A DNA stretch of 64,000 bases from a virus. Its lineage: Duplodnaviria > Caudoviricetes. How positions within the stretch are numbered: the first letter of the stretch is position 1; each line of letters starts with the position of its first letter. Positions 1,664-28,568 of the stretch are shown piece after piece. The stretch spans positions 32,001-96,000 of the IMG/VR virus record IMGVR_UViG_3300025357_000008, one strand, 5' to 3'. The notes under the pieces are model-generated. The model had not been told where the DNA came from. It did not search any database and was given only the letters and a program-made list of their open reading frames with translations. The translations under genes and the position numbers were made by a program.

Positions 1664-1966
1664 ATGAAAAAGATTTTACTTGCAATTCTATTAGTATCTA
1701 CATTCACCGTTGCTGATGCATGTTGCTATCGAGGATATAATCGTGGTGGTTATTATTGGGGTGGTAATGGTTGGGTAGCACCAGCATTAATTGGTGGTGT
1801 AATCGGTTACGAACTTGCCCGTCCACCATTGTATGTGGAACAACCAGTAATTGTACAACCACCTGTTGTAATTCCGCAACAAACTGTAGCACCAGTTGGC
1901 TACCATTTTGTGACTATTCAGGATCCATCCTGTAATTGCTACAAACAGGCATTAGTACCGAATTAA
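1664..1966 (+). CDS. secreted Pro/Gly/Tyr-rich small protein
   Basis: Sec signal peptide MKKILLAILL...ADA, glycine-zipper-like APALIGGVIG, Pro-rich tail; AAGGAG RBS. Confidence 0.75.
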   Translation: MKKILLAILLVSTFTVADACCYRGYNRGGYYWGGNGWVAPALIGGVIGYELARPPLYVEQPVIVQPPVVIPQQTVAPVGYHFVTIQDPSCNCYKQALVPN

Positions 1967-2028
1967 TGTTGTATACCGACAACAAATTGGTAAATAGTGC
2001 TTGACATTTTCGGTGGTTATGATACAAT
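1967..2028 (+). promoter_or_regulatory. sigma70-type early promoter with upstream TGTTG-N8-CAACA box
   Basis: TGTTG1967-CAACA1984; TTGACA 2001-2006; 16 bp; TGn-TACAAT 2023-2028. Confidence 0.8.
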
Positions 2029-2059
2029 AGAGTTTTAAATGTGTGAATAAAGGTACATT

Positions 2060-3205
2060 ATGATTAAATTGAATGACAATCAACGCCAGTTTGTAGTCGC
2101 CGCTGAAAAGCATTATGGTGCTAATGCCGTCTTAACCAGAGACAATATTAGCCATGTAGTAAGTGAGGAAGATGTATCATATCCTTACTGGTTAACTAAT
2201 CGTACCGAACACCGTGCAGGTCGAGGTACATATCAACTACCAAGTCTAGGTAACACATCAATGAAAACTCCTGAGCCAGAATTAGAAGTTGCATTGTCTG
2301 CCCAAGTGATGGCATTCAAACAACCTAAGTTACTTGATGAATCCGATCCATCAGTACCAGAACCTTATCCTGACTTTGTTCCTTTCGGTTTCTACAATGA
2401 CCTTAGAACTATTATCAAGTCTAAAGATTTCTATCCTGTATTTGTTACCGGCATGTCAGGTAACGGTAAGACCTTGATGGTCGAGCAAGTTTGTGCAACT
2501 TTAAAAAGAGAATGTATCCGTGTTAACATATCTATTGAAACTGATGAGTCCGATTTACTTGGCGGTCCTACTCTGGTCAACGGTAATGTTGTCAATCGTG
2601 ATGGTCCTGTGCTTACAGCTATGAAACGTGGCGCTATCTTGTTGATTGACGAGGTAGACCGTGGTTCTAATAAACTTATGTGTTTACAAGGTATCCTTGA
2701 AGGTAAACCTTACTACAATAAGAAAAACGGTGAGTTAGTGCATCCAGCACCTGGCTTCAACGTAGTTGCTACTGCTAATACTAAAGGTCGTGGCTCTGAA
2801 GAAGGTCGTTACCTGTCTCAAATCCTCGATGATGCGTTCCTTGAGCGTTTTGTAGTTACCGTTGAGCAAGAATATCCTCCCGTATCAACTGAGAAGAAAA
2901 TCCTCAAGCCGTTGATTGATGATGAAGAGTTTGTTGAAAATCTTGTGAATTGGGCTGACGTTGTACGTGCCTCATTCAAGCAAGATGCCGTAGATGAAAT
3001 CATATCTACTCGCCGCCTTGTGCATATTGCCAAGACGTACAAGATTTTCAACGATAGAATGAAGGCGATAGAGTTGTGTGTGAATCGTTTTGATGAGCAA
3101 ACAAAAACTGCCTTCTTAGACCTGTACTCTAAAGTGGATGCAAAGGTTAATCCTCCTGCTCCTGTAGAGCCTACAGCAACACCAACTGATGAAATACCAT
3201 TCTAA
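2060..3205 (+). CDS. cobS: CobS/MoxR-like AAA+ ATPase of T4-like phages
   Basis: Walker A GMSGNGKT, Walker B LLIDEVD, ATANTKG, AFLERF, ISTRRL (CbbQ/NirQ-type C-terminus). Confidence 0.85.
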   Translation: MIKLNDNQRQFVVAAEKHYGANAVLTRDNISHVVSEEDVSYPYWLTNRTEHRAGRGTYQLPSLGNTSMKTPEPELEVALSAQVMAFKQPKLLDESDPSVPEPYPDFVPFGFYNDLRTIIKSKDFYPVFVTGMSGNGKTLMVEQVCATLKRECIRVNISIETDESDLLGGPTLVNGNVVNRDGPVLTAMKRGAILLIDEVDRGSNKLMCLQGILEGKPYYNKKNGELVHPAPGFNVVATANTKGRGSEEGRYLSQILDDAFLERFVVTVEQEYPPVSTEKKILKPLIDDEEFVENLVNWADVVRASFKQDAVDEIISTRRLVHIAKTYKIFNDRMKAIELCVNRFDEQTKTAFLDLYSKVDAKVNPPAPVEPTATPTDEIPF

Positions 3206-3207
3206 GT

Positions 3208-3260
3208 TGTTGTTAAAAAGCAACATAACTATTGACAATTGCCGGTAGTTATGTTACAAT
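3208..3260 (+). promoter_or_regulatory. sigma70-type early promoter with TGTTG-N8-CAACA box and -35-enclosing hairpin
   Basis: TGTTG3208-CAACA3225; TTGACA 3232-3237; 17 bp; TGt-TACAAT 3255-3260. Confidence 0.85.
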
Positions 3261-3305
3261 GAAGTGTGAGTTAAATTATTATTTGTTTTTGAAAAGGAAA
3301 TTAAA

Positions 3306-3620
3306 ATGGCTAAAGATAACAATCGTCACCAAAAGTTTGCCCAAGTTATGCTTACTGGTAAACCTGTAACACCGCAAGACTTTGCTGAAGTATTCAAAGG
3401 CACAGATACAGAACCTGTATTGTACCGTTTGTCTACCTATATCTATGATATTAAAAAGTATGAGCACGGTGTTATCAAAGTAATCAAAAACGGTAGAAAA
3501 GTTCAAGCCTACCAACTGGTAAACTTTGATGAGTTCAATGATGATGGTTCTTACCGTGGTCCTGTAACCGCAGTAAAAGCTCCTGTTGCAGTAGAGCAAA
3601 AAGAACCCCTAGCGGCCTAA
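3306..3620 (+). CDS. hypothetical (possibly DNA-binding) protein ending in ssrA-like LAA
   Basis: 104-aa ORF, AAGGA RBS, first gene after an early promoter; C-terminus EPLAA. Confidence 0.8.
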   Translation: MAKDNNRHQKFAQVMLTGKPVTPQDFAEVFKGTDTEPVLYRLSTYIYDIKKYEHGVIKVIKNGRKVQAYQLVNFDEFNDDGSYRGPVTAVKAPVAVEQKEPLAA

Positions 3621-3669
3621 ATATTAAGAGTGGTGCCTAGTGCACCACGATTAACTAAAGGAGAAAACA

Positions 3670-3909
3670 ATGAATGAATGGGATAAGAGTAATCTGTTAT
3701 TCATTATTCATAGTTCGCACAAGGAATTCGATGCTTGGATGGCTCAGGCAACTCCTGATGATATCAGGTATGCGTTAGAGTTAATTGCACTAGCAAAAAA
3801 AGAAAACACTCGTAGAGCATTGAATATTGATCCACCTCTTGAAGGTAGTAACTTCAAAGAGGCCAAGAATGTATTAAAGAAATTTATGTTAGGTAAAAAG
3901 AATGTATGA
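3670..3909 (+). CDS. hypothetical protein
   Basis: 79-aa ORF, AAGGAG RBS. Confidence 0.75.
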   Translation: MNEWDKSNLLFIIHSSHKEFDAWMAQATPDDIRYALELIALAKKENTRRALNIDPPLEGSNFKEAKNVLKKFMLGKKNV

Positions 3910-4069
3910 ATTGCGTTGGTATGTACCTAAAAGTGATAACGGCATTAAACCCGTCTTACAGTACCGCACTCAATTAGATATGGATGAATGGGATGAACAC
4001 CTAAGAATCAATGTCAGATTAAAAGTGTGGTCAGACTGGAAGAATGTTCCAACTGTAGAGGAAAAATAA
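3902..4069 (+). CDS. small hypothetical protein (55 aa)
   Basis: Translated by hand: MYELRWYVP...VLQYR...WSDWKNVPTV. Confidence 0.6.
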   Translation: MYELRWYVPKSDNGIKPVLQYRTQLDMDEWDEHLRINVRLKVWSDWKNVPTVEEK

Positions 4070-4070
4070 A

Positions 4071-4298
4071 ATGAAATATTCGTTATGTTTTGTTCTTTTA
4101 TTGACTGCCTGTGGTAGTCCTAAACTAAAGAACTATGATGGTCCTGTTGCTATGGATAGAGGCTCAGTTGTATCCGGTGCAAGAGATTGTATCAATGGTA
4201 GAATGAAGCCAGAGGTACAATATGTATCTCAGAAAACACCACAAGGTGTTGTGTTAGTTCCAGTTGAAGTTTTATGTACTCCCTATGCATCAAGGTGA
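4071..4298 (+). CDS. putative lipoprotein
   Basis: Lipobox LLLTAC after a short hydrophobic signal. Confidence 0.65.
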   Translation: MKYSLCFVLLLTACGSPKLKNYDGPVAMDRGSVVSGARDCINGRMKPEVQYVSQKTPQGVVLVPVEVLCTPYASR

Positions 4299-4301
4299 TT
4301 T

Positions 4302-4700
4302 ATGCTTGAACAATTTGGTATTCATCAAGGTACCGCAGAGGTACTAATCATAGTCTGCATGGCTGTAGCGGCCTGCGGTGTCATACTAATGATGTTTTGG
4401 AAATATATTGCCGCAGGTCTTGTAGCTGTATTTTGCCTCTACACATTCGCTCAACGTATACCAGAACAACCAGCAAAAGAAGTTGCAAAGGCAGTCGCAC
4501 CTATCGAAACTGCCGTTGTAGAAGATACAAAGAAAATCCTAGCCGATGCTAAAGAAGAAGAAAGAAAATTCTTTATGCGTGATTGTATGAAGATTGCCGA
4601 TTACACAGAGGATCAATGTAAAGAGCATTGGGAAGACAGACAATCCGAAGAGTTTATGGTAAGAAACGGAAAGGATGAAAAATGGGTAGTCAATCGTTAA
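4302..4700 (+). CDS. membrane protein (2 TM segments)
   Basis: Two hydrophobic segments in the N-terminal half. Confidence 0.7.
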   Translation: MLEQFGIHQGTAEVLIIVCMAVAACGVILMMFWKYIAAGLVAVFCLYTFAQRIPEQPAKEVAKAVAPIETAVVEDTKKILADAKEEERKFFMRDCMKIADYTEDQCKEHWEDRQSEEFMVRNGKDEKWVVNR

Positions 4701-4921
4701 GTAATGAAGAAATACGGCAACTAGCAGGAGACGTTGACGATTTCTTTCATAAAATAGCCCTCACATACAATTGTGATTACATGCAAATGAGTGCTACCAT
4801 ACTCGCCAGATTAGTCAGGTTAGGGTTGGAATCATTCAATGAGGAAGGACTTGAAATGCTATTGGAGTCCGCTCAAAACACGTTAAAACAATCAAAAAAG
4901 AGACCTGGTAGGATGCAATAG
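4682..4921 (+). CDS. hypothetical protein
   Basis: 79-aa ORF, AAGGA RBS. Confidence 0.6.
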   Translation: MGSQSLSNEEIRQLAGDVDDFFHKIALTYNCDYMQMSATILARLVRLGLESFNEEGLEMLLESAQNTLKQSKKRPGRMQ

Positions 4922-4975
4922 TGTTGCTAAAATACAACACAATAGATTGACACTACCAGTTTATTGTGTTATAAT
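4922..4975 (+). promoter_or_regulatory. sigma70-type early promoter with TGTTG-N8-CAACA box and -35-enclosing hairpin
   Basis: TGTTG4922-CAACA4939; TTGACA 4947-4952; 17 bp; TGt-TATAAT 4970-4975. Confidence 0.9.
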
Positions 4976-4994
4976 ATAATTTTAAAGGATAAAA

Positions 4995-5843
4995 ATGAGA
5001 GTAGCACTAGCATCCGATGTACACTTAGAGTTTGGTGATTTGAATTTGAAAAATGATGACAATGCGGATGTATTGTTGTTGGCCGGAGATATTTGTGTTG
5101 CTAAAGAGTTGCCATTTACCGATAGCCGTTATTATGATAGATTTCACGATTTCTTTGCTCGTTGTGCATCCGAATTCAAAGATATAATCTACATTGCCGG
5201 TAACCATGAGCATTATCATGGCACTTATGATGAGACCCATCCTATCATCCGTACCGCACTAGAAAAACACACCAATATCCATGTACTAGACAGAGAACAT
5301 ATTACCATTGGTGATACGTTATTCTTTGGTGGTACATTGTGGACTGATTTCAACAATGAAGATCCAAGTACAATGAGGTCTATCCGTGAGATGATGAATG
5401 ATTTTAGAATCATTTCTGCACCTGGTGACCGTAAGTCCTCTTGGAAAGATGCTGAAGGTAATTTACATTACAGGATTTCCAAATTGACACCTGAAGATGT
5501 ATTAGTTGACCATAAAGACTTCTTAGATAAGTTGAATCAGCTGTTACTTGCACAAAGGCTGTTGAATTCGCATAACAAAGTTGTGGTTGTGGGTCACCAC
5601 TCACCAAGCAAATTGTCTACAAAACCCCAATACGAAGATGATTGGGAAATGAATGGTGGGTATAGTTCAGATTTGAATGACTTTATTATGGATCATCCTG
5701 AGATTAATCTTTGGGTGCACGGACATACCCACCATGCCTTTGACTATATGGTAGGTAAAACACGTATCTTATGTAATCCTAGAGGTTATGTTGGCTATGA
5801 GGTTAATGAAGATGAATTTAAATTGGTGACTGTTGAGGTGTAA
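4995..5843 (+). CDS. calcineurin-like metallophosphoesterase
   Basis: SDVH, AGDI, GNHE, GHH, HGHTH, NPRGY motifs. Confidence 0.9.
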   Translation: MRVALASDVHLEFGDLNLKNDDNADVLLLAGDICVAKELPFTDSRYYDRFHDFFARCASEFKDIIYIAGNHEHYHGTYDETHPIIRTALEKHTNIHVLDREHITIGDTLFFGGTLWTDFNNEDPSTMRSIREMMNDFRIISAPGDRKSSWKDAEGNLHYRISKLTPEDVLVDHKDFLDKLNQLLLAQRLLNSHNKVVVVGHHSPSKLSTKPQYEDDWEMNGGYSSDLNDFIMDHPEINLWVHGHTHHAFDYMVGKTRILCNPRGYVGYEVNEDEFKLVTVEV

Positions 5844-6066
5844 TATGAATAATGCGATTAAAACAATAATTAAAACTGCTACAGGTAGAAACGCCCCCTA
5901 TGACGAGGTAACAACACTTGAACTTGAAAGCATAATTAGATTGACATTGGATGATATTGATGCTATAATATTTGAATTGCATCAAGAATCCGAATCGGAT
6001 AAAGCGATGATTTTAACTGAATTGACTGCAAGAATTATGAAACATTTCTATAGTAAGGAAATTTAA
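5833..6066 (+). CDS. hypothetical protein
   Basis: 77-aa ORF; start probably the second Met (GAGGT RBS). Confidence 0.6.
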   Translation: MRCNMNNAIKTIIKTATGRNAPYDEVTTLELESIIRLTLDDIDAIIFELHQESESDKAMILTELTARIMKHFYSKEI

Positions 6067-6068
6067 AA

Positions 6069-6377
6069 ATGGTTGATAAGACTGAACGTAAGAATAAAGA
6101 CCGTAAGATTTTCATTGTTGAATCGGTAAGTATGTTTCGGTTAAGATATGCGGTGTTTGCAACCTGTGCAGAAGATGCAATGGATGAATTCACATTGAGG
6201 ACAGAGGATGCAGATTTCCATGAGATGTCACAACAACATATTGGTGAGAATATTATATCTGTTCGCAAAGTATCAGAGAAAAAATTCTTAAAACAATACG
6301 ACAATGACAATGGTCCTTGCACTTGGACTGACGACCAGAAACTGGGGGTAATAAACGTAATTGATTATGAAGAGTAA
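6069..6377 (+). CDS. hypothetical protein
   Basis: 102-aa ORF, AAGGA RBS. Confidence 0.7.
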   Translation: MVDKTERKNKDRKIFIVESVSMFRLRYAVFATCAEDAMDEFTLRTEDADFHEMSQQHIGENIISVRKVSEKKFLKQYDNDNGPCTWTDDQKLGVINVIDYEE

Positions 6378-6540
6378 CATTAGGGAAATTAAAACCTATG
6401 ACGGTAAACAACACCGTAGCCGTGACCCATACGATACTAGATTACAAACTGAAGTAAAGGTTGATAAACTGTATCAATGTATGGATTGCGGTGAATACAT
6501 GACAAAGAAACCTGAAGAGCATATTTGCAAAAAATCATAA
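6367..6540 (+). CDS. small putative Zn-finger protein (57 aa)
   Basis: Translated by hand: ...YQCMDCGEYMTKKPEEHICKKS; TAATG coupling with the next gene. Confidence 0.5.
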   Translation: MKSNIREIKTYDGKQHRSRDPYDTRLQTEVKVDKLYQCMDCGEYMTKKPEEHICKKS

Positions 6541-7145
6541 TGAATACATTACAAAATTACCTATCACTAGACCTTGAGTTGAATAATGCTGAGGATGGAT
6601 CTACGCCTAATCCAAAAATAATTCAAGTAGGTATAGCGGTAGGTTCATATGAAGATTACTTTAATGGTACGTTGTACAAACAGAAATGGTACATAGACCC
6701 ACAAGAGGCAATCTTTCCGTTTATCACAGAACTAACTGGTATAACTGATGATGATATTGCCAGAAATGCCGTACCACATGAGCATGTAGCAAAAGAACTG
6801 AGTGCATTAATCAAGGCAAGAGATTGCTTTGTTAATCCTATCACATGGGGTGGTGGTGATTCTGTTGAATTAAAAGATGAATTCAAAGCAAGAGGTATAT
6901 ACTTTCCTTGTTTCGGTCGTAGATGGATAGATGTGAAAACATGGTATACATTTTTGAGATTTTCTAAAGGTCAAGAGGCTAAAGCAGGACTAAAGTCTGC
7001 CGTGCGTGAGTTTAAATTAAATTTTGATGGCGAACCTCATCGTGCAGATGATGATGCATTAAATACATTGAGATTGTTTTTCAAGTTCTTAGAATTACAA
7101 GGTGAGATGAATATCGTTATTAATATGGCAAAGAGGATACAATGA
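6540..7145 (+). CDS. DEDDh 3'-5' exonuclease (DnaQ/ERI-1/KapD-like)
   Basis: ExoI LDLE, ITELTGI, WGGGD, ExoIII HRADDDA. Confidence 0.85.
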   Translation: MNTLQNYLSLDLELNNAEDGSTPNPKIIQVGIAVGSYEDYFNGTLYKQKWYIDPQEAIFPFITELTGITDDDIARNAVPHEHVAKELSALIKARDCFVNPITWGGGDSVELKDEFKARGIYFPCFGRRWIDVKTWYTFLRFSKGQEAKAGLKSAVREFKLNFDGEPHRADDDALNTLRLFFKFLELQGEMNIVINMAKRIQ

Positions 7146-7804
7146 AGATATACAAAAGCAATTACAGAGACCATTGGGTTTCTCCCTATACAATACTTGA
7201 GAAGGTTTGTTTTTGGGAAAAAGATACTGACGTATTCTATGAAGACGGTGGTGTATACGAAAAGATAACCGACTTATTGGTGCCTGTTTCTAAGGCAATG
7301 AAATGGGTACTAAACCTCATCTATCCAAGAATCAACTATGTTAAGATTGACCGTTGGGATACTTATTCAATGGATCATACATTGGGTGACATTATTTTAC
7401 CAATGTTAAGACAATTGAAAGAAAAAAATCATGGTGCACCATATGTTGATGACGAAGATGTGCCATATGAATTAAAATCTATCAATGATTCACCATATGT
7501 TAAAGAATACAGTATTGATGAATGTAGGCATTTTGCTCGATGGGATTATGTAATGAATCAAATGATATTTGCCTTTGAATGTAAGGTTGATGATTCATGG
7601 GAAGATTTGTTCCGTTCCGGTAAACATGATATGAAAAGTGTACCATGTCAATGGGATGAAAACGGTAAACCAACAATGCACACCTTTGAAAAAGGTCCTA
7701 ATGATACCTATGTGTGTGACTATGAAGGCATAAGAGAGTATGAAAAGCGTATACAGAATGGTTTTAGACTATTCGGTAAATATTATCAAAACTTATGGGA
7801 TTAA
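7142..7804 (+). CDS. conserved hypothetical phage protein
   Basis: 220-aa ORF with recurring phage motifs DTYSMDHTL and GFRLFGKYYQNLWD. Confidence 0.8.
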   Translation: MKIYKSNYRDHWVSPYTILEKVCFWEKDTDVFYEDGGVYEKITDLLVPVSKAMKWVLNLIYPRINYVKIDRWDTYSMDHTLGDIILPMLRQLKEKNHGAPYVDDEDVPYELKSINDSPYVKEYSIDECRHFARWDYVMNQMIFAFECKVDDSWEDLFRSGKHDMKSVPCQWDENGKPTMHTFEKGPNDTYVCDYEGIREYEKRIQNGFRLFGKYYQNLWD

Positions 7805-7807
7805 ATT

Positions 7808-8080
7808 ATGAAGGTAAAAATTTATAAGAGTGAATGGCATCAAATGGAAAGAAAATATGTTGTCGAAATTGATGAAGATTTGGTCAATGAACTTTATCCC
7901 GATAACACCAAAAAGAAAAACAAAGAAATTCTAAAAGGTTTAAAAGATGGCACCACAGATATTGATGAGTTTATGGGTGATGCTTTTGGTGAGATAGATA
8001 TTGATTGGGACCATGTGGAAGATGATTTATGGACGGACCGTAAAGGCGGATATGAAATAACTTATGAGGTAGAACAATGA
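7808..8080 (+). CDS. hypothetical protein
   Basis: 90-aa ORF in a compact operon. Confidence 0.7.
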   Translation: MKVKIYKSEWHQMERKYVVEIDEDLVNELYPDNTKKKNKEILKGLKDGTTDIDEFMGDAFGEIDIDWDHVEDDLWTDRKGGYEITYEVEQ

Positions 8081-8499
8081 ACAAGTATATACATGAAAGA
8101 TATGAAAATAAACTCGGCTATGGGCAAGTAAGTCAGACTGCACGAGATGAAAGAAATTATGAAAACTATGCCGGCGAACATGTTTCAACGGAAGAAATAT
8201 TGAGAAAACGTAGTTATGCACAGAGTTACCAAGAAAGCCAAGTTGCGGAACCTAAAATTTCTCTAATGGAAATGCTTACTATTATTGAAAAGTCTTTAGA
8301 TGTATTGGGTGAGCATATGCAAACATTGAATCTTAATTTCTTTCCAGTAATGAGAAGTGGTATTGGTTTGGAAGCAAAACAGGAAGCCGTAACGAGACCT
8401 CATCATTCAGAAGCGGTATTATACGCAATCAATATTAATGAAAAAATTGGTGAGTTACAGGACAGAGTTTTACAAATGTTGGATAGGAATGAACTATGA
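8077..8499 (+). CDS. hypothetical protein
   Basis: 140-aa ORF, ATGA overlap, GAGGT RBS. Confidence 0.65.
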   Translation: MNKYIHERYENKLGYGQVSQTARDERNYENYAGEHVSTEEILRKRSYAQSYQESQVAEPKISLMEMLTIIEKSLDVLGEHMQTLNLNFFPVMRSGIGLEAKQEAVTRPHHSEAVLYAININEKIGELQDRVLQMLDRNEL

Positions 8500-8693
8500 G
8501 TGAGAAAATGAGTCTAGAAGAATTTCTAAATCACAATGCACCATCAGAAGAGGCTATTGAAGAGATTGCTTTCAATACACTATCAAGACGGTATATTAAT
8601 AAAGAAGAAATTGATTTCAATATTGAATTTAACAAAGCAGTCGATGCGTTAGTGAATGAAATGTACCGTTTATATGTGGAGTCTGATGAATGA
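8496..8693 (+). CDS. hypothetical protein
   Basis: 65-aa ORF, ATGA overlap. Confidence 0.6.
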   Translation: MSEKMSLEEFLNHNAPSEEAIEEIAFNTLSRRYINKEEIDFNIEFNKAVDALVNEMYRLYVESDE

Positions 8694-8953
8694 TGTCTTT
8701 AATACATTTATTGTCCGCTAAACGTAGGTTAAAAGAGTTGCAAAAAACTGTTACTATGTTAAAGCATGACAAGTATAAAGAAGATGATGTACCGACAATG
8801 ATACTTGCACAAAGAGATTTTGTTAAGTTAGAAGTAGAATACTATCAAGATGAGGTAAGAAATCTTTTAGCGTATACTCTTTTTGCCATAGGCGTTTTGT
8901 TTCTTATCGGGGTGGCTTCGTATCCGTTTCTTATTAACTATGGAGTAATATAA
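8690..8953 (+). CDS. membrane protein (C-terminal TM)
   Basis: Hydrophobic C-terminal helix. Confidence 0.65.
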   Translation: MMSLIHLLSAKRRLKELQKTVTMLKHDKYKEDDVPTMILAQRDFVKLEVEYYQDEVRNLLAYTLFAIGVLFLIGVASYPFLINYGVI

Positions 8954-9201
8954 TGTTGGATAAAATCAAATTGTATATAAAACCAATCCTTCAACTTATA
9001 GTCGGTGTTTTTATTATTGCTATAATAGGACAGTTTTTTTCAGACAGACTAAATAATAATACACCTGAGGCTCTCAAAGAGTTCAAAGATGGAGTTCAGA
9101 ATCATTTAGTGTGGTCAATCAGAGGAGAATGTTTCTTTGTTAGACCTCATTCTGATGTGACTGTGTATTTAATTCGAGTAACGGATTGTGATAAAAAATA
9201 A
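8953..9201 (+). CDS. membrane protein (N-terminal TM)
   Basis: TM helix, GGAG RBS. Confidence 0.65.
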   Translation: MLDKIKLYIKPILQLIVGVFIIAIIGQFFSDRLNNNTPEALKEFKDGVQNHLVWSIRGECFFVRPHSDVTVYLIRVTDCDKK

Positions 9202-9210
9202 GGAGATAAT

Positions 9211-9537
9211 ATGAGTTTATTTGTAGAAGTTGATTCCGTAGAAAAAGGTTGCCCTGTCATTATCAATCTAGATAATGTATTAGAGATTGCCCCATTACGT
9301 ACCGGTGGCGTAACAATATTTTTTGCAGATGCCGCATCTGTTAACGGTAAACATGCAATGAAGGTTCACAATGAATACGATGAGTTTAAACAGTTCGTAT
9401 TGCAAAGAGTTTCTTCAGAAGATATTGCAAAAACAATCGAACGAATTACACCTAAGGATGCTAAAACAAAAGCAAAACCGGCACCCGCAAAGTCTTTCGC
9501 TGAAATTACAAATTCATTAGAACAAGGTAAACTGTGA
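9211..9537 (+). CDS. hypothetical protein
   Basis: 108-aa ORF, AAGGAG RBS. Confidence 0.75.
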   Translation: MSLFVEVDSVEKGCPVIINLDNVLEIAPLRTGGVTIFFADAASVNGKHAMKVHNEYDEFKQFVLQRVSSEDIAKTIERITPKDAKTKAKPAPAKSFAEITNSLEQGKL

Positions 9538-9570
9538 AGTTTACTGAGACGCTTGATATTATAAAGGAAG

Positions 9571-10317
9571 ATGATGGCACGAGTACGCAAAATTGAAACT
9601 GAGGTTGAAAAACCAAAAGGTGTTAAAACTAAAAAGACTAAGAAATCCTCTGATGTGGTAATCATTGATACTGATGACAAAAAGTATGATAACCCGTCAG
9701 AAGATAAAACTGAAATACCACAATCTAATGGTGGCTCATGGCCATTTATGAATGACCAGTTAGAAAATTGGGCATTTTGGGACAAGGCGTTTACACTAGA
9801 AGAATGTAAAAAGATTATTGATATTGGTGAAAGACGTAGGAAAATAATTGCTAAAGTCGGTGGTGGTGTAGAAGGTGTTGCAAATCCTGATATCAGACGT
9901 AGTGATATTGTTTGGTTATTTCCACAAGATGATATGGCATGGGTATTTCAAAAGATGACCGGTTATATTATGGCACTCAACGAAAAGTTCTTTAAGTTTG
10001 ACCTATGGGGTTTCAATGAAGGCTTTCAGTTTACCAAATATGATTCTAAACAAAAAGGATTCTATGGTCAACATGTTGATAGAACTTACTTAGGTCCTGC
10101 ACCACGTAAACTATCAATAACTTTACAGTTATCTGATCCTGATGAGTATGAAGGTGGTAATTTGAATCTGTATTTTGGTAAAGAACCGACCCCATCCAAG
10201 CGTGACCAAGGGTTTTTGACAGTCTTTCCTAGCTATACAATGCATGAGGTTACGCCAGTAACTAAAGGCACCAGATACTCGCTGGTAGCGTGGATAACGG
10301 GTCCTCAGTTCAAATAA
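9571..10317 (+). CDS. 2OG-Fe(II) oxygenase (PKHD/prolyl-4-hydroxylase-like)
   Basis: HVD, RKLSITLQLSDPDEYEGG, FPSYTMHEVTPVTKGTRYSLVAW. Confidence 0.9.
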   Translation: MMARVRKIETEVEKPKGVKTKKTKKSSDVVIIDTDDKKYDNPSEDKTEIPQSNGGSWPFMNDQLENWAFWDKAFTLEECKKIIDIGERRRKIIAKVGGGVEGVANPDIRRSDIVWLFPQDDMAWVFQKMTGYIMALNEKFFKFDLWGFNEGFQFTKYDSKQKGFYGQHVDRTYLGPAPRKLSITLQLSDPDEYEGGNLNLYFGKEPTPSKRDQGFLTVFPSYTMHEVTPVTKGTRYSLVAWITGPQFK

Positions 10318-10319
10318 AG

Positions 10320-10372
10320 TGTCTCTTTTAAGCAACATTCGTGTTGCTTTTTTGTCTCAACTGTGATATAAT
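10320..10372 (+). promoter_or_regulatory. sigma70-type promoter with degenerate TGTct-N8-CAACA box
   Basis: CAACA 10333-10337; TTGCTT 10344-10349; 17 bp; TGa-TATAAT 10367-10372. Confidence 0.7.
10330..10353 (+). terminator. intrinsic terminator overlapping the next promoter
   Basis: AAGCAACA-TTCG-TGTTGCTT followed by a T run. Confidence 0.75.
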
Positions 10373-10378
10373 TATATT

Positions 10379-10684
10379 ATGAATACTACATTATCTACCG
10401 GCAAACTTGTATGTACTTACAATTCTTCAAACCAAACTCTCAATGTTGGCTCATTAACTGATTTCAAAATACCGGCACCTGAGATATGGATACCTCATAT
10501 ACCTACCTACAATTTCCGTGTAGCCGAGTATGTGAATAAAGAAGACAAAATCACTTCGGTCGGTTTACAATATCAAGTTGTAATGCACAATCAATATGGT
10601 AGTGTAGAGTCTACAGGTCCTTGGGTATCTGTAGATAGAGTTAAAATAGATGAATTAGGAAACGTTATAGGCACAAACGCATGA
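10379..10684 (+). CDS. hypothetical protein (possibly leaderless)
   Basis: 101-aa ORF; ATG lies 7 nt after the -10 box. Confidence 0.6.
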   Translation: MNTTLSTGKLVCTYNSSNQTLNVGSLTDFKIPAPEIWIPHIPTYNFRVAEYVNKEDKITSVGLQYQVVMHNQYGSVESTGPWVSVDRVKIDELGNVIGTNA

Positions 10685-11779: not shown

Positions 11780-13315
11780 ATGAGTTTAAATTCCACAGGG
11801 CCAATAAGTTTAGGTGGTTCTACATCAGGACAATCAATTGAACTAGAATTAGGAGAAACAGGGACACAACCTATTTCGATGGGAGATTCTATTGTTAGGG
11901 GATTTCTTGGAGTGCCATCTGGTGCAATCTCTTTAGACATTGCCCACGGTAAAAGTTTATTTGCAGGCACACTACAAACAACTATAACACAACCCTCTAA
12001 TGCCTATGCTAATACATACGCAGGATTTGGTTATTCAAATGCAATATCGGATGATGGTTTGACAATGATAATTGGTGGGCCTAATGATTATGCTTTTGGG
12101 TATGGCGGTACTGGTCACCCAACAACATTAGGTGCGGCATGGATATTCACTAGAGCAAACACCAATACAACGACTTGGACTCAGCAAGCGAAGTTATTAG
12201 GTAGTGGTGGTGTTGGTGCAATGACTGCTTCACAATACACTACAGGTTTTTCAGTATCGGTCGGATGGTCAGTTGCAATTTCAAATGATGGAAATACTGT
12301 TGCTATTGGTAGTCCTCCACGGGTAGAAAATCCACCATCTGGTGGTGTTGACTATGGAGTTGGTGGTGTATGGGTGTACACTAGGTCAGGAACTACATGG
12401 TCTCAACAAGCAGGACCTTTAACTTATACTAGCAATAATTGCGGCACAAATTCATGGGGTATCGGATGGTCATTAGCAATTTCAGGTGATGGTAATACAA
12501 TTGCGGCAGGTCAACCAAATTATGGAACAAATTCAGGAGGTAATGCTAATCAAGGTGGTGTTGTAGTTTTTGTTAGGTCGGGAACTACGTGGTCGGCGCA
12601 AAGCGGCCTTTTACAAGGTTCTGACACCACAAGAGCATTAGGTACTTTTATGGGATGGTCTGTTAGTTTGTCTAAAGACGGCAACACATTAGCGTTTGGT
12701 GGTTTTGGTGATGGGTATAATTCTACTACTGGTGTCGCTGTAGGGGCAACATGGATATTTACTAGATCCGGTTCAACATGGTCGCAACAAGGAACAAAAA
12801 AAATAGGTACCGGTGGAGTTCCTGGATCAGGACAGGGTAGTGTAGTGGCCTTATCTGGTGATGGAACTGTATTAGCAACTTCCGATCCTACAGATAATTC
12901 AAATGTAGGGGCAATATGGATATTTACTAGATCCGGTTCAACATGGACTCAACAAGGATCTAAACTTGTTGGTACTGGAGGATCGACTGCATCAGGATCA
13001 GTAGGGCAAGGAAGTGCATTGGCATTAAATTATGCGGGAACACTATTGGCCGTAGGTGCCTATCAAGATAGCGGATCAGGCACAACTGCAAATGGTGCTA
13101 TGTGGATGTTCAAATCAAATGCTGATGCCGGTACATTTACTCAATTAGGTTCAAAAATTGTTGGTAATAATCAACAAGGCGTATTCTTAGGTGAAGGTAT
13201 TTCAATTGCAAATACCGCCGGTACTGTCGTAGTAAGTGGTGCTGGTGCCGGTGCACCATACGGTGATGCCGGATATTCAACAATTGCAAATCAACAGGTT
13301 TTAGTTTATAATTAA
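11780..13315 (+). CDS. FG-GAP-repeat beta-propeller, putative tail-tip adhesin
   Basis: About 7 repeats G.SVAISxDGNT.A.G...GA.WIFTRSGxTWxQQ; N-terminal SGPISLG..QSIELELG..GAISL..HGKS anchor module. Confidence 0.8.
   Translation: MSLNSTGPISLGGSTSGQSIELELGETGTQPISMGDSIVRGFLGVPSGAISLDIAHGKSLFAGTLQTTITQPSNAYANTYAGFGYSNAISDDGLTMIIGGPNDYAFGYGGTGHPTTLGAAWIFTRANTNTTTWTQQAKLLGSGGVGAMTASQYTTGFSVSVGWSVAISNDGNTVAIGSPPRVENPPSGGVDYGVGGVWVYTRSGTTWSQQAGPLTYTSNNCGTNSWGIGWSLAISGDGNTIAAGQPNYGTNSGGNANQGGVVVFVRSGTTWSAQSGLLQGSDTTRALGTFMGWSVSLSKDGNTLAFGGFGDGYNSTTGVAVGATWIFTRSGSTWSQQGTKKIGTGGVPGSGQGSVVALSGDGTVLATSDPTDNSNVGAIWIFTRSGSTWTQQGSKLVGTGGSTASGSVGQGSALALNYAGTLLAVGAYQDSGSGTTANGAMWMFKSNADAGTFTQLGSKIVGNNQQGVFLGEGISIANTAGTVVVSGAGAGAPYGDAGYSTIANQQVLVYN
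12739..12946 (+). repeat. 43-nt near-identical direct repeat between propeller blades
   Basis: TGTAGGGGCAA(C/T)ATGGATATTTACTAGATCCGGTTCAACATGG at 12739-12781 and 12904-12946. Confidence 0.85.
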
Positions 13316-23216: not shown

Positions 23217-24601
23217 TATTGTAATCCAAATTGTTTAACTATGTGAGCAGGTATCTCTTTGTTTGCTTGCCAGTTTCTAGCTTCAACATCTTGTATACCT
23301 TGTTTCACATCTTCAGTTTTATAGATATTGTACAAATCTTGTTTGATAATTGTGACTTTAGGTTTTCTCGGTTGACCTTTTGCATCTTGCATCGCTTTAA
23401 CTTTAACATCAGCATCTGCAAGTGGTGCTGTTTTTGGTACTAATTGTAGTTTAGTTGGTGTTTCAGGTTTTACGGCATTTGTTTCTGGTGCTTGAATGTC
23501 AGTAGTTTTTGACTCTATCTCAGGCTGTGCCATAGGCTTAGGTGTTTGTAAATGGTAATGTCCAGTCGGATTAGCACCACTTTTATCTGGTGGCTCATAT
23601 ATAACTTTTGTACCTGGTACTGTGCTTTGAAGTTCTGATTGAAGTTTCATTGCACCTTCACTTGTTAATTTTTCCGATGGTATGTTAATATCAGCACCAA
23701 ATCCACCTGGGTGCGGATGACTCATATCTTGATGTAATATATCTTGATGGTATTTGTCATTTAGTGCATTGATTTTTACATCAGGATGCATTTCTTTGAT
23801 TTTATTCATCACGGCAAGTAATTCTGGTGTTGATCCACCACCTGCAACTGCTTCTGGTGATTTTAAATTATCTACAAGATTGCCAAAATCTGTTTTGAGT
23901 TTACTAAATTTTGGTACTTTTTGTTCCATTGATTTAAGTAACTCACCTAAATCAGGAAATTTAAAGTCACTTACATTTTTCTTAAAACCCGCAAATGCTT
24001 TATCCATGCCAAATAAACCTAATCCCGCTAAACTAGCAAAAGCGGCATACTTAAGCCATGAATAGTTTTCAACATACTTTTGTTTTTTCTTTTTAGGTTG
24101 TTGATGACCTAATGCTTCAAGTAGTTTTTTGTTTCTATTATTCTTATGTTCATCTTCTAATTTTAACATTTTATCGCTTTCGAGTTGCGATTTTCTTTTC
24201 TTATCATAATTCTCGTTCATCATGTTTAACATTTTGGCAAGAATGTCGGCTTCCGAATCACCTTTTTTCAACTTTAAATGTGTGTTGGGTGCAACTTTAG
24301 ATATTTGTGGGTCTTTTTTAGGGCTAGAAATCTCTTCTTCTTCATTTTCTTGCATATTATCATCAGTCTTACCTTTTAATTTAGAGTTGCCGGTCATTGC
24401 TTTTGCAACTCTTTGAGGTTCAAATTTTTGTTGAACGTTTTCAACATACTCATTCATTACCGGTGATTCTTTTTGTCCCTTACGAATACCCAAGCCAATT
24501 TCAACAGACCTTTTTTGTTCGGGTGTGAGAGTCTCTAAGTTACTATAGAGAACTTCTAATTCACCCCCACCAAATAGTTTGTTGAATATTTCTTTTTCCA
24601 T
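23216..24601 (-). CDS. tail hub/tape-associated protein with M15-like metallopeptidase domain
   Basis: Hx6D (HPGGFGAD) and HxH (HYH) motifs; TM segment; paralogous block shared with ORF 21240. Confidence 0.6.
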   Translation of the reverse strand: MEKEIFNKLFGGGELEVLYSNLETLTPEQKRSVEIGLGIRKGQKESPVMNEYVENVQQKFEPQRVAKAMTGNSKLKGKTDDNMQENEEEEISSPKKDPQISKVAPNTHLKLKKGDSEADILAKMLNMMNENYDKKRKSQLESDKMLKLEDEHKNNRNKKLLEALGHQQPKKKKQKYVENYSWLKYAAFASLAGLGLFGMDKAFAGFKKNVSDFKFPDLGELLKSMEQKVPKFSKLKTDFGNLVDNLKSPEAVAGGGSTPELLAVMNKIKEMHPDVKINALNDKYHQDILHQDMSHPHPGGFGADINIPSEKLTSEGAMKLQSELQSTVPGTKVIYEPPDKSGANPTGHYHLQTPKPMAQPEIESKTTDIQAPETNAVKPETPTKLQLVPKTAPLADADVKVKAMQDAKGQPRKPKVTIIKQDLYNIYKTEDVKQGIQDVEARNWQANKEIPAHIVKQFGLQ

Positions 24602-24787: not shown

Positions 24788-25509
24788 TATCCGAAAAAAT
24801 TCTCTAGCCCTTCTACATCCATTGAATGATCAAAACCACATTTACTACATTTCATATCAACATGTTGTCTAATTCTTGGTAAATTTGAAAAGAAGTCTTC
24901 TAGTTTACTGAATTGTTCTTGACTCAAAGATTCTACAAATTCTGTAAGTTCTTCTTTTGTGCTATCAACCGCATAAAAGTATTGTTGCCCATCAAAGATG
25001 TATTCAATAGATTCAATCATAATATCAAATGCAACGTCTACCGCAGAATCTTTCTGTGCAAGTTTAGTTAGAATTGAGAACTTTGGGTATTTCAATTTAA
25101 TTGACATGGTATCTGTCAACTGTATTACATCTGGTTGATCCGGCATCTCAACATTGACTTCGAGCAAGTTGAGTTTGATTTCCATCTTGTTACCACATTG
25201 ACTTTCCCCAACTGTATTTGTACAGATATATTTGTTCTCTACAATCTCACCGACTGACCTTGCTCTTAAGTTTATGAAATAATACTCAATATCAGTAACC
25301 GGTAAGTCTTCAATGTCTAAATCTTTTGTTAAAGTACAATTCACTAATACTTGTCGAACATTACGCTCTAAAGTTTCTTTTTCATCGGCTTCTAAAGCCA
25401 TCATTAAGTTTCTTTGTTCTTTTACTAAAAAAGGTCTGAACAAAACTTCTTTTTTACTTACCGGTAAAACCAACGTATACGTTGGTGTATCAATTTTAGG
25501 CAATGCCAT
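24787..25509 (-). CDS. gp26: baseplate hub subunit gp26
   Basis: MALPKI..PTY.L.LP, FRPFLVKE, DIEY.F..LRARSVGE, C.KCG, GLENFF. Confidence 0.9.
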   Translation of the reverse strand: MALPKIDTPTYTLVLPVSKKEVLFRPFLVKEQRNLMMALEADEKETLERNVRQVLVNCTLTKDLDIEDLPVTDIEYYFINLRARSVGEIVENKYICTNTVGESQCGNKMEIKLNLLEVNVEMPDQPDVIQLTDTMSIKLKYPKFSILTKLAQKDSAVDVAFDIMIESIEYIFDGQQYFYAVDSTKEELTEFVESLSQEQFSKLEDFFSNLPRIRQHVDMKCSKCGFDHSMDVEGLENFFG

Positions 25510-25526
25510 AATAATCTCCAATCAAT

Positions 25527-26111
25527 TTAAAATGTTAATAGTGCTTGTTTTGCTGTTTGTCCTATTGACTTCAGGCTTATTGGGCTTGAAGTAGTGTTTG
25601 TCCAATATGTATATGCAAAATCTACAGAAACTCTATGAAAGTCTTCTGAATTCCATGCTAGATCCATTTGATTGACTGTCGTAGGAAACGCATCAATCAA
25701 TTTTACCTGATATGTTTTATTACCAGACATATCATATTGTGTAATTAAAATATCTACCACATAACTTGATTTGTAGTTGAAATTGAAATCTGTAGATGGG
25801 TTTACTAAATCCATCCATGCATCAAAGAAAACTTTCTCACCCATGTTACCGTTAACGATAAAATCTAATACGACATCGTTATAAGAAGTATGATACGGAA
25901 ACTTTTCTACCGGTGCAGAACCGATTTTCTTATCCATCATGGCAATGTTTCTGCCTGGTAACATTGCATTGTCGCAACGAAACGTTAATTGTCTACCGGT
26001 ACTAGCATAACTTGCAAGTGCAAGAGGTACTGGTATTGTCACATCAAACATAAACTTTCTGGCTACGTCTGAGCCAAAAGTGCTAATGAAATTACTGATT
26101 GGTGACGGCAT
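25527..26111 (-). CDS. tail-tube family protein (gp54/gp19-like tube initiator)
   Basis: C....LPGRN, PY...Y.D..L.F, FF.AWM, L.DAFP.....L.W. Confidence 0.75.
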   Translation of the reverse strand: MPSPISNFISTFGSDVARKFMFDVTIPVPLALASYASTGRQLTFRCDNAMLPGRNIAMMDKKIGSAPVEKFPYHTSYNDVVLDFIVNGNMGEKVFFDAWMDLVNPSTDFNFNYKSSYVVDILITQYDMSGNKTYQVKLIDAFPTTVNQMDLAWNSEDFHRVSVDFAYTYWTNTTSSPISLKSIGQTAKQALLTF

Positions 26112-26711
26112 TTATGAGTTCCTTATCTCGTTTAATGAATCGTGCCACACTTCTTTTGCCGTGGCTTTCTTAAATTGTTGTACTGGTAATGCTAAAGCGA
26201 CATCCCATTCTTCTGGTTGTACCGCCAAAATCCTTGAACGAGTATGTTCGTACAGGTATCGTTTTAAACAGGGTCTAAACTCTTTCAGAGTGCGTGTGGC
26301 GTTGAGTATGTCATAAGTGACGGTCAAACGCTTAATCTCTTCCTCCTCGTTTTTAACGGCTCCATGACGTACCAGTTTTGACATCAATGCCACTCTATAA
26401 TTAAACGGCAAGTAATGCATGTTTAAACCTAAGAAACCATCGTTATACTTTTCAAGCATTAATACCAGTGGAAACTTATCGTAGTACGGCAACTCTTCTT
26501 TCATCTTAGGATCATAGTAGAAGAAGTACATCGCACCTTTTCTAACTGTTTTGGTATTCCTAGAATCTTCTTTTCTAATTGCGGCCGGTATTAATGTAGG
26601 ATTACGCAATTCGGTAATCTTATGTCCGAGCCATTTCAAAGAATCTTGGGACATTGATTTATGTCCAAGAGCCTTTCTTTCGTTTGAGAGTATTGTTAGT
26701 TTTGATGCCAT
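26112..26711 (-). CDS. gp2: DNA end protector gp2
   Basis: YFF.YDPK.K..LPYYDKFPLV, GFLGLNMHYLP, CLKRYL. Confidence 0.9.
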   Translation of the reverse strand: MASKLTILSNERKALGHKSMSQDSLKWLGHKITELRNPTLIPAAIRKEDSRNTKTVRKGAMYFFYYDPKMKEELPYYDKFPLVLMLEKYNDGFLGLNMHYLPFNYRVALMSKLVRHGAVKNEEEEIKRLTVTYDILNATRTLKEFRPCLKRYLYEHTRSRILAVQPEEWDVALALPVQQFKKATAKEVWHDSLNEIRNS

Positions 26712-26714
26712 CTA

Positions 26715-27155
26715 TTATTTAGACAGGCCTAAGTCATCTTCGGTAAGTACTTTGAACTCCCAACCACGGTCTAAACAGTACTCTGTAGCGGCTTTCCATT
26801 TGTTTTGATTGACACCATAAGTATATACTTCATTAACATACTTCTTAGTGATTCGCTGTTGTTTCTTAGGTTCCATAGTCTGAACCTTCGGTTTAATCTC
26901 TATTAAATAAGACTTAATAGTGCCGTCCTTTGTTTTCATTTGAGCATAGAAATCAACAAAGTATCGTCTAGGTCTGCCATCAGATGGGTCACGATACGGT
27001 ATCACAATCTCTTCACTTGCCCAAGATACTACGGCATCGGTCTCATCGAGCCATTTCATATATCGGTATTCCCAAGTAGAACGCCATCTGATGTTTTTGT
27101 GGTCGCCACGATACTTTTGTGGGTTTCGTGGGACAAATTTTCCGCTATAAGCCAT
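26715..27155 (-). CDS. gp4: head completion nuclease gp4
   Basis: YSGKF.P.NP.KY.GD, RS.WE, WASEE..IPY, RYFVDF, EIKP, NQNKWKAA. Confidence 0.92.
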   Translation of the reverse strand: MAYSGKFVPRNPQKYRGDHKNIRWRSTWEYRYMKWLDETDAVVSWASEEIVIPYRDPSDGRPRRYFVDFYAQMKTKDGTIKSYLIEIKPKVQTMEPKKQQRITKKYVNEVYTYGVNQNKWKAATEYCLDRGWEFKVLTEDDLGLSK

Positions 27156-27182
27156 ATTATTACCAATTATTGAATGTCCCGT

Positions 27183-27199
27183 TATTTATGATATAAATA
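27183..27199. promoter_or_regulatory. back-to-back late promoters for gp4 (-) and gp48 (+)
   Basis: CATAAATA on the minus strand (27183-27190) and TATAAATA on the plus strand (27192-27199). Confidence 0.75.
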
Positions 27200-27224
27200 C
27201 CTCTAACAACTATTCTCTAGGCAC

Positions 27225-28568
27225 ATGTCATTTATTACCAATCCAGCCAAAAACGGGCTACAAGTACCATTTAAGCAACTTGCAGGCCCTCTAGCAAAAC
27301 TTTTTAATAAAGAAGGTTCTGGCAATTTTGTTTATCCATCAGATTTAACAACAAATCCGGCAATGAGTCATGCCGTACAGTTTTCAATTTACGATTGGAA
27401 CACACCTTTTGCAGAATCTATTAGTAATGCCCCATATACTGCAAGTGCGGCCGCTCAAACTGCTGTCGGTGCATATCAAGAAGCGGTAACAAAATTTAAT
27501 GAGGCAAGAAGTGCGTATTCAAAAGAAGGTGGTTCGATACCAGCTAATCTTGAAGCATTACAAGCCGCTACAACTTCATTAGAAGCAAAATTAGTTAGTG
27601 CCGCTCCTGCACTTTTCAGTTTATTTCAATCTAGTTATTCAGCAACAACATATAAGCCAAGAAAAAAATCAAACATACTTTCAAAAATATCTTTGTATTT
27701 ACCGGATACATTAACTGCATCTTGGGATTCAAATTACAATTCGGTAAGTATGACTCAAGAACTTGGCAAACTTGGTTTTTTAGCGAGTGCGGCAGATTCT
27801 ATTAAAAGTCTTTCTAAGAATGGTATTTCAAATATAACTGCATCAGATATTCTATCCGATCCTAATGCTAAATCTGCAATATCAACACTATTAGGTACGT
27901 TAGGTGGTAAATTAGGTGGTTCTGCCGATAATCAAACACAATTATTAGAACAAGCCCTAGGTCAGTTTGTTAATCCTCAAACTCAATTAATATATCAAGG
28001 TAGAGACTTCAGAAACTTTACGATGACCTTTATATTCACACCAAAAAGTTCTGCTGAGGCTGAGACTGTTCAAAATATTATTGACACATTCACATACTAT
28101 TCTTCACCTGGTCTAATAAATGCTGGTTCAACAGATGCCGGTAGATACTTAACACCACCACAACTAATGTCTGTAAAAATGGTATTCACAGGACAAAATG
28201 GTATTACTGGTTCTGTTATCACTCAACTCAAAAGTGCATTAAATAATGCAGGATTAGGTTTCTTAAATTCAAATCATAGTCTAACTGATACAATTTCAAG
28301 CGGACAAAAAGCAAAGATTTTTGATATTAAAGAATGTGTAATCACAAACGTTGCGGTTGATTATGCACCTAACGGTTGGGCCGCATTTAGTGATGGTTAT
28401 CCTGTTCAAACTACAATGACACTTAGTATGATGGAAACATCTATCTTTACAAAAGCAGACGTTAAGAATAGTAAAGTTAGTAAAAACTATCAAGATTATC
28501 AAGCCGCACTTGCAAAACAAGCGGCTGAAGACCAGCAACATTATCTTGGTGGAGGTTACGGCGCATGA
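27225..28568 (+). CDS. gp48: baseplate tail-tube cap gp48
   Basis: ISLYLP, NPQTQLIYQG..FRNF..TF.FTPKS..EA..V..II, C.ITNV.VDYAPNG. Confidence 0.8.
   Translation: MSFITNPAKNGLQVPFKQLAGPLAKLFNKEGSGNFVYPSDLTTNPAMSHAVQFSIYDWNTPFAESISNAPYTASAAAQTAVGAYQEAVTKFNEARSAYSKEGGSIPANLEALQAATTSLEAKLVSAAPALFSLFQSSYSATTYKPRKKSNILSKISLYLPDTLTASWDSNYNSVSMTQELGKLGFLASAADSIKSLSKNGISNITASDILSDPNAKSAISTLLGTLGGKLGGSADNQTQLLEQALGQFVNPQTQLIYQGRDFRNFTMTFIFTPKSSAEAETVQNIIDTFTYYSSPGLINAGSTDAGRYLTPPQLMSVKMVFTGQNGITGSVITQLKSALNNAGLGFLNSNHSLTDTISSGQKAKIFDIKECVITNVAVDYAPNGWAAFSDGYPVQTTMTLSMMETSIFTKADVKNSKVSKNYQDYQAALAKQAAEDQQHYLGGGYGA

Follow-up and report, generated by a model that had tools for sequence, protein, structure and literature searches.

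Stem-loops enclosing the -35 elements of two sigma70 promoters in a T4-like phage: a likely variant of promoter-early stem-loop cassettes

The stretch of DNA analysed here (the window) comprises 64,000 nt, bases 32001-96000, of the IMG/VR virus record IMGVR_UViG_3300025357_000008, a genome of 170,261 bp with 37% G+C that is rated complete. Since a major capsid protein of the Gp23 type (E 5.5e-142) and T4-type baseplate proteins (baseplate wedge and tube-cap genes) are encoded, the virus is regarded as a T4-like myovirus; AsiA and MotA were searched for in this phage and neither was found. The first 20 kb of the window hold a series of small + strand open reading frames (ORFs), mostly without a family match, interspersed with near-consensus sigma70 promoters. 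Two of these promoters, P3232 and P4947, lie within inverted repeats that would enclose the -35 hexamer in the loop of a hairpin. A promoter together with its stem-loop is referred to below as a cassette. The features at the two sites are as follows.

2060-3205, + strand: CobS-like ATPase gene (phrog_249, E 4.9e-106), upstream of and co-directional with P3232; a transcript reading through from it would contain hairpin 1
3222-3231, + strand: 5′ arm of hairpin 1 (10 nt), reaching 3234 if the TTG of the -35 hexamer pairs
3232-3237, + strand: -35 hexamer of P3232, TTGACA, in the loop (from the sequence)
3246-3255, + strand: 3′ arm of hairpin 1; the extension starts at 3243, and T3255 also opens the -10 hexamer
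3255-3260, + strand: -10 hexamer of P3232, TACAAT, with TG at -15/-14 (extended -10)
3306-3620, + strand: 104-aa gene served by P3232, without a family (ORF list and family scan); anchor of the orthologous cassette set
4936-4946, + strand: 5′ arm of hairpin 2 (11 nt), extending to 4949
4947-4952, + strand: -35 hexamer of P4947, TTGACA, in the loop (from the sequence)
4960-4970, + strand: 3′ arm of hairpin 2, with one G.T; the extension starts at 4957
4970-4975, + strand: -10 hexamer of P4947, TATAAT, a 12/12 promoter with an extended -10; T4970 also ends the 3′ arm
4995-5843, + strand: metallophosphoesterase gene served by P4947 (phrog_1649, E 2.3e-53)

Both repeats had been reported in a sequence-only reading of this DNA, and both were recovered. 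Hairpin 1 is a perfect 10-bp inverted repeat (3222-3231/3246-3255), and hairpin 2 is an 11-bp repeat (4936-4946/4960-4970) with one G.T pair (4945/4961). At both promoters, as that reading had also noticed, the loop (3232-3245 in hairpin 1) opens with TTGACA, and the final base of the 3′ arm doubles as the first of the -10 hexamer. Three further pairs can be added to either stem through the TTG of the -35, by which the loops shrink from 13-14 nt to 7-8 nt. The promoters score 11/12 (P3232) and 12/12 (P4947), each with an extended -10 and a 17-bp spacer.

The sense RNA was predicted to fold at -12.9 kcal/mol at P3232 and -13.8 kcal/mol at P4947 (z scores of -4.9 and -5.1), and none of 200 dinucleotide shuffles was as good. 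Antisense RNA folding gave -11.4 and -6.9 kcal/mol, respectively, the latter with a z of -1.6, and DNA folding of both hairpins gave only about -4.4 to -5.9 kcal/mol. The core stems are A+T-rich, with 2-3 G:C pairs in 10-11 bp. A search of window positions 1800-10600 on both strands with the Rfam 15 covariance models yielded no match at E up to 1.

Stems of at least 9 bp enclosing a -35 were found at 4 of 76 candidate promoters of the genome, against 0.68 expected, in a broad scan that allowed many registers and one G.T. A second test, for which the geometry (5′ arm abutting the -35) was fixed beforehand from the sequence-only reading and P3232 and P4947 were left out, identified stems of at least 8 bp at two of the other 35 strong promoters (null mean 0.09, P 0.003). 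Both are situated outside the window, at 130123-130158 and 145026-145047 of G000, which denotes the genome numbering of this phage as distinct from the window numbering. The stem of the first is A+T-rich and 9 bp long, with its 5′ arm inside the end of the upstream ORF; that of the second is G+C-rich and is followed, within the promoter spacer, by seven T, a canonical terminator with the -35 as its loop. Each of the four stems that enclose a -35 in the genome comes after a co-directional ORF. The hairpins are real structures that are unlikely to have arisen by chance.

The stems of hairpins 1 and 2 differ in sequence and stay complementary, which had been put forward as covariation. Outside the hexamers, the two promoters share 31% identity, the background level; they are not homologous, and their comparison therefore provides two independent instances of one arrangement. 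As such the observation stands, and as covariation between homologues it was rejected. The 'phages' collection, searched at the nucleotide and the protein level, contained no close relative that could be found, and relatives were taken from IMG/VR, among them five syntenic contigs (G001-G005). The cassette is kept between cobS and the 104-aa gene in G003, with a stem that is completely different in sequence and fully complementary (12 pairs, one G.U). Comparison with window positions 3203-3305 showed that the whole cassette is absent from G001, G002, G004 and G005 (L049, L048, L045 and L052), where cobS and the 104-aa gene are ~25 nt apart. A profile search with the 104-aa protein provided 76 loci with 65 distinct junctions, 37 with a promoter and 28 with neither promoter nor hairpin and a short spacer of roughly 10-30 nt. 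The cassette is gained and lost as a unit, a presence/absence polymorphism at a fixed junction.

Among the 37 orthologous cassettes the hexamers are invariant or nearly so and their spacing is fixed. At least six pairs of the minimum free energy (MFE) fold enclose the -35 in 34 of them, and the median z is -4.5, with 95% below -2. Using a MAFFT alignment that was anchored on the promoter and not fitted to any structure, 75.6% of the cells of a 12-pair helix were paired, compared with 59.5% in column shuffles (0/500 as high) and 34-48% when the partner was slid. Double-sided changes were seen in 11 of the 12 pairs, the covariation score was 0.375 vs 0.162, and RNAalifold recovered the inner seven pairs de novo. 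The helix register of the window is shifted three columns from that of the relatives, which counts against these pairing figures and not for them. When covariation is sought in homologous promoters, as the sequence-only reading had suggested, the alignment thus shows a helix around the -35 that has been kept by compensatory change in the P3232 orthologues, and the pairing is under selection. Such maintenance across dozens of uncultivated lake phages is direct evidence from evolution for a function of the structure as well as of the promoter.

Two asymmetries between the strands were also recorded. The sense RNA is more stable than the antisense in 24 of the 37 cassettes, and mismatches comprise 28 G.U vs 17 A.C. 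A wobble test with symmetric scoring, applied to all promoters of the genome, was prone to spurious end extensions, which added both G.T and A.C.

A second helix is predicted in 23 of the 37 cassettes, where the 3′ half of the -35 and the first spacer bases (about -32 to -25) are complementary to 6-9 bases located 0-6 nt downstream of the -10 (about -6 to +5). Carriers include the IMG/VR cassettes L169, L174, L186, L192-L243, L225 and L238. Since MAFFT misaligned the columns of helix 2, it was scored by comparing cognate, non-cognate and shuffled sequences rather than by column counts, with shuffled sequences pairing in only 3.8% of cases and non-cognate pairs in 19%. Seven sequence types of helix 2 were found, all complementary, for example CCAACAT/ATGTTGG, CCAACTG/CAGTTGG and ACAACTG/CAGTTGT, the last of which has an A-for-C change inside the -35 that is matched by a downstream T-for-G. 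Taken together, the two helices are predicted to form a pseudoknot topology whose spacing varies; the bases left unpaired between helix 1 (12 bp) and helix 2 (6-9 bp) are the TTG, a linker of one or a few bases, and the -10 hexamer plus the 0-6 bases after it. Both window cassettes lack the second helix.

Since each hairpin lies wholly upstream of the start site of its own promoter, it could act only on the DNA or on transcripts that read through from upstream, as the sequence-only reading had recognised. Read-through RNA fits best because the genes upstream run in the same direction, folding is somewhat better for the sense strand, G.U exceeds A.C, and helix 2 of the relatives implies a pseudoknot of variable spacing, although none of these points is decisive. 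With a probability of roughly 0.55, the elements are regulatory cassettes like the promoter-early stem-loops (PeSLs) of T4-like phages, acting on read-through sense RNA so as to attenuate or terminate it or to protect the 3′ end of the upstream mRNA. We infer an action as RNA rather than as DNA, with attenuation or 3′-end formation as the presumed effect. A near-consensus sigma70 early promoter would be nested in a stem-loop after the stop codon of the co-directional upstream gene, and this stem-loop would act on the single-stranded sense transcript reading through from that gene, forming just as RNA polymerase arrives at the embedded promoter. The small early genes would thus be separate transcription units and the downstream promoter would not be occluded. 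With its -35 in the loop and its -10 next to the 3′ arm, the promoter would then have been compacted together with a terminator.

PeSLs combine a strong sigma70 early promoter with a stem-loop, and their five subclasses include one in which the stem-loop overlaps the -35 (PMC2839356, PMC4122927). Cassettes of this kind are known from the T4-like phages RB49/phi1, PST/T4 and nt-1/KVP40 (Arbiol et al. 2010, PMC2839356; Comeau et al. 2014, PMC4122927). One PeSL stem-loop lowered lacZ expression to the same extent as rrnB T1, and a crossover in RB49 was mapped to the stem-loop's loop (PMC2839356). The window cassettes resemble PeSLs in belonging to a T4-like phage, in the fusion of a near-consensus sigma70 early promoter to a stem-loop between small variable genes, and in an overlap with the -35 that is already described as a subclass. 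They also share the association with indels among relatives, as the window genome and G003 have the P3232 cassette and the other four contigs do not. A scan of phi1 identified cassettes with a G+C-rich 7-8 bp hairpin inside the spacer, whose 3′ arm abuts the -10 and is not followed by a U tract. The boundary at the -10, the lack of a U tract and a similar stability are common to the phi1 and window hairpins, whereas the window stems are A+T-rich, 10-14 bp long and have the 5′ arm upstream of the -35. Orthologue covariation and a second helix, moreover, are not part of published PeSL descriptions (PMC2839356, PMC4122927). Rather than a novel type of promoter switch, the window hairpins are most likely a variant of the PeSL cassettes already known.

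Several findings weigh against PeSL-like cassettes acting on read-through RNA. Neither hairpin is followed by a T run (U tract), and in view of this and their A+T-rich stems neither is a canonical intrinsic terminator. The cassettes lack the ~100-bp similarity that enables PeSL recombination, and their 31% identity makes a recombination role doubtful. P4947 has four distinct orthologues (G001/G002, G003, G004 and G005). Only that of G003 has a significant fold (z -5.4), with a different inner stem; the other three keep the promoter and an upstream TGTTG-N8-CAACA motif (see below) and have no fold (z above -1). Because these three of four keep the promoter without the stem, and because 28 relatives lack the whole cassette, the hairpin is dispensable. 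The sense/antisense and G.U/A.C asymmetries are also modest, and their statistics ignore relatedness.

The P4947 orthologues bear equally on the sequence-only reading, which had proposed a structure coupling upstream termination or processing to promoter use. The selected pairing and the read-through RNA branch of that proposal fit the present data best, but its promoter "switch" is unsupported, with no sign that promoter use depends on the fold, and is the less likely reading. The same reading had pointed to a third hairpin, which is a canonical intrinsic terminator.

10330-10353, + strand: canonical intrinsic terminator with an 8-bp stem (10330-10337/10342-10349), a TTCG loop and a T run; -8.2 kcal/mol, z -4.6

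This hairpin combines a G+C-rich stem, a loop within 3-8 nt and a U tract right after the stem, a combination that neither promoter hairpin shows. The UUCG terminator is therefore as the reading had it, but the claimed overlap with a -35 is limited to a weak -35-like TTGCTT (10344-10349), touched by the 3′ arm and situated 17 bp upstream of an extended -10 (10364-10372). That extended -10 (TG at 10364-10365, hexamer at 10367-10372) ends 6 nt before an ATG at 10379 that has no Shine-Dalgarno sequence, and the 101-aa ORF starting there may be translated from a leaderless mRNA or may be mis-called.

In unrelated cobS-carrying viral contigs (L054, L068, L087, L097, L139, L151 and L166), a canonical terminator comes after the cobS stop codon. 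Its T run is in the spacer, and the -35 is in its loop except in L097, where the -35 is in the 3′ arm. The loose DNA pattern used (cobS end plus -35) gave >115 mostly unrelated matches, which filtering reduced to 26 promoter-like ones, about half of them true cobS ends. Terminator/promoter overlap at the cobS junction is therefore widespread, and these terminators, with that at G000 145026-145047, form a continuum from plain overlap to the window form. The window hairpins are like such overlapping pairs, to which 10330-10353 and G000 145026-145047 of this genome also belong, in directly following a stop codon and sharing bases with the next promoter, and unlike them in having neither a T run nor a G+C-rich stem.

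Other explanations were weighed against the same evidence. There is a minority possibility that the output is RNA processing or protection, a sub-case of action on RNA, in which the A/U-rich -10 segment would be a single-stranded cleavage site between helices and cleavage would separate the cistrons and leave a 3′ hairpin on the upstream mRNA. A hairpin without a following U tract would suit this function, as would the orthologues, in which only the TTG, the linker base(s) and the -10 segment stay unpaired between helices that may stack into a double-stranded RNase substrate. The window cassettes, however, do not have helix 2, and no Rfam family was matched.

Control at the DNA level is rather unlikely. 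Negative supercoiling, or single-stranded replication or recombination intermediates, would extrude the repeat and put the -35 in a loop, blocking sigma70 and tying promoter strength to topology. The inverted repeats are real and conserved, and both strands can fold at P3232 (-5.9 and -5.5 kcal/mol as DNA). A precedent was engineered by placing an N4 hairpin between the -35 and -10 of rrnB, which abolished promoter activity until gyrase inhibition by novobiocin restored it (Dai et al. 1997, summarised in PMC4496689). An extruded inverted repeat within a sigma70 promoter can therefore shut the promoter off, but the hairpin in that case was an engineered one with a specially stable loop, whereas extrusion in the window is hypothetical. 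Loops of 7-14 nt and weak DNA energies would make extrusion costly, and the P4947 antisense strand folds poorly (z -1.6 as RNA, -1.95 as DNA). Moreover, one cruciform cannot hold together the two helices of the relatives' pseudoknot, and relatives lose the stem while keeping the promoter. We know of no natural cruciform-controlled sigma70 promoter in T4-like phages, and DNA-level control, if true, would make these rare natural topology-gated sigma70 promoters.

The sequence-only reading had likened the sites to the hairpin promoters of phage N4. Those consist of inverted repeats with short stems that flank a conserved GC-rich heptamer centred at -11 and span -17 to +1; gyrase extrudes them, SSB stabilises them, and the phage's single-subunit virion RNA polymerase uses them (PMC4496689). 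A DNA inverted repeat at a phage early promoter and the idea of structure-controlled initiation are common to both. The window arms, in contrast, extend from about -45 to -12 around long loops that contain the -35 of a sigma70 consensus promoter, and the hairpin would hide a recognition element rather than create one. The analogy is not supported, and PeSL, the closest known system, had been missed.

It is unlikely that the fold is a dedicated single-strand device around a sigma70 promoter, either a true switch or a decoy, in which DNA folded by torsion would silence the promoter or a read-through pseudoknot RNA would gate the polymerase or sequester a factor. Many relatives do have two covarying helices that pair nearly everything from about -47 to +5 and expose the TTG, the linker base(s) and the -10 segment. 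If this proved correct, it would be a natural case, maintained by evolution, of nucleic-acid structure controlling promoters in a phage that relies on its host's polymerase.

A role solely as a recombination substrate, with the hairpin promoting cassette insertion and excision in the style of PeSL mini-circles and having no part in transcription, is improbable. It would agree with the cassette polymorphism at a fixed gene junction and with the RB49 crossover in the loop of a stem-loop (PMC2839356), but 31% similarity between cassettes makes homologous exchange unlikely, and long-term compensatory upkeep across divergent phages suggests a function in every generation. An operator whose arms are half-sites flanking the -35 for a dimeric phage or host repressor is very improbable despite the dyad symmetry across a promoter element and the operator-like look of other palindromes in the genome (TGTTG-N8-CAACA and those of an island upstream of the window), because the arms of the two window promoters, like those of the orthologues, have wholly different sequences that nevertheless remain complementary, register and loop length are offset by 3-4 nt in the relatives compared with the window, mismatches lean to G.U and the half-sites have no common consensus.

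Earlier descriptions of PeSL cassettes treated them chiefly as terminator-bearing linkers for recombination. As PeSL-like cassettes acting on read-through RNA, the window elements would offer a compact model, ~35-70 nt in size, for the insulation of neighbouring transcription units among dense phage early genes, and the second helix of the relatives is a concrete candidate for a promoter-overlapping pseudoknot.

A palindromic motif, TGTTG-N8-CAACA, precedes both promoters and also the promoter of cobS.

3208-3225, + strand: TGTTG-N8-CAACA upstream of P3232 (TGTTG 3208-3212; CAACA 3221-3225, overlapping the 5′ arm of hairpin 1)
4922-4939, + strand: TGTTG-N8-CAACA upstream of P4947 (TGTTG 4922-4926; CAACA 4935-4939, overlapping the 5′ arm of hairpin 2)
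1967-2028, + strand: cobS promoter P2001, with TGTTG-N8-CAACA one helical turn further upstream and no hairpin enclosing the -35

Nine copies with a spacing of 8 are present in the genome, whereas most other spacings yield 0-3 copies and a spacing of 12 yields six. They are located at 1864-1881, 1967-1984, 3208-3225, 4922-4939, 13159-13176 and 24429-24446 of the window and at G000 28898, 145009 and 145961, and for at least six of them a -35 or -35-like hexamer follows 5-7 nt downstream (or 16 nt, a helical turn further). The overlap of CAACA with the 5′ arm, described in the sequence-only reading, is real at both promoters, but the competition it had proposed between the hairpin and pairing of CAACA with TGTTG was not borne out. 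As an RNA stem (5 bp, 8-nt loop), TGTTG/CAACA never appears in the predicted MFE folds because CAACA is used by the long stem, and it was rejected as a competitor. Relatives retain the motif with single uncompensated changes, a pattern more in keeping with a protein site than with a stem, and its behaviour is that of a conserved sequence motif. A search for the Ogr/Delta zinc-finger family, a candidate reader of TGT-N12-ACA, gave no match above the cut-off.

Words of the TACCG/CGGTA type recur in the promoter spacers at 2007-2022, 3238-3254 and 4953-4969, in the island at G000 25302-27775 and in upstream regions, and one promoter spacer contains a perfect 12-bp palindrome of this type. Such words are only ~1.5-1.8x over-represented genome-wide (TACCGA 1.8x, 165 observed vs 92 expected). 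Copies within a separate island upstream of the window share 47-72% identity.

A PHROG scan that covered five of the six ORFs between P3232 and P4947 gave no match. The five small ORFs at 3670-4921, between the two promoters, are mostly without DNA matches in the closest relatives, and this stretch is therefore considered hyperplastic; the ORF at 4071-4298 has a lipoprotein-like signal.

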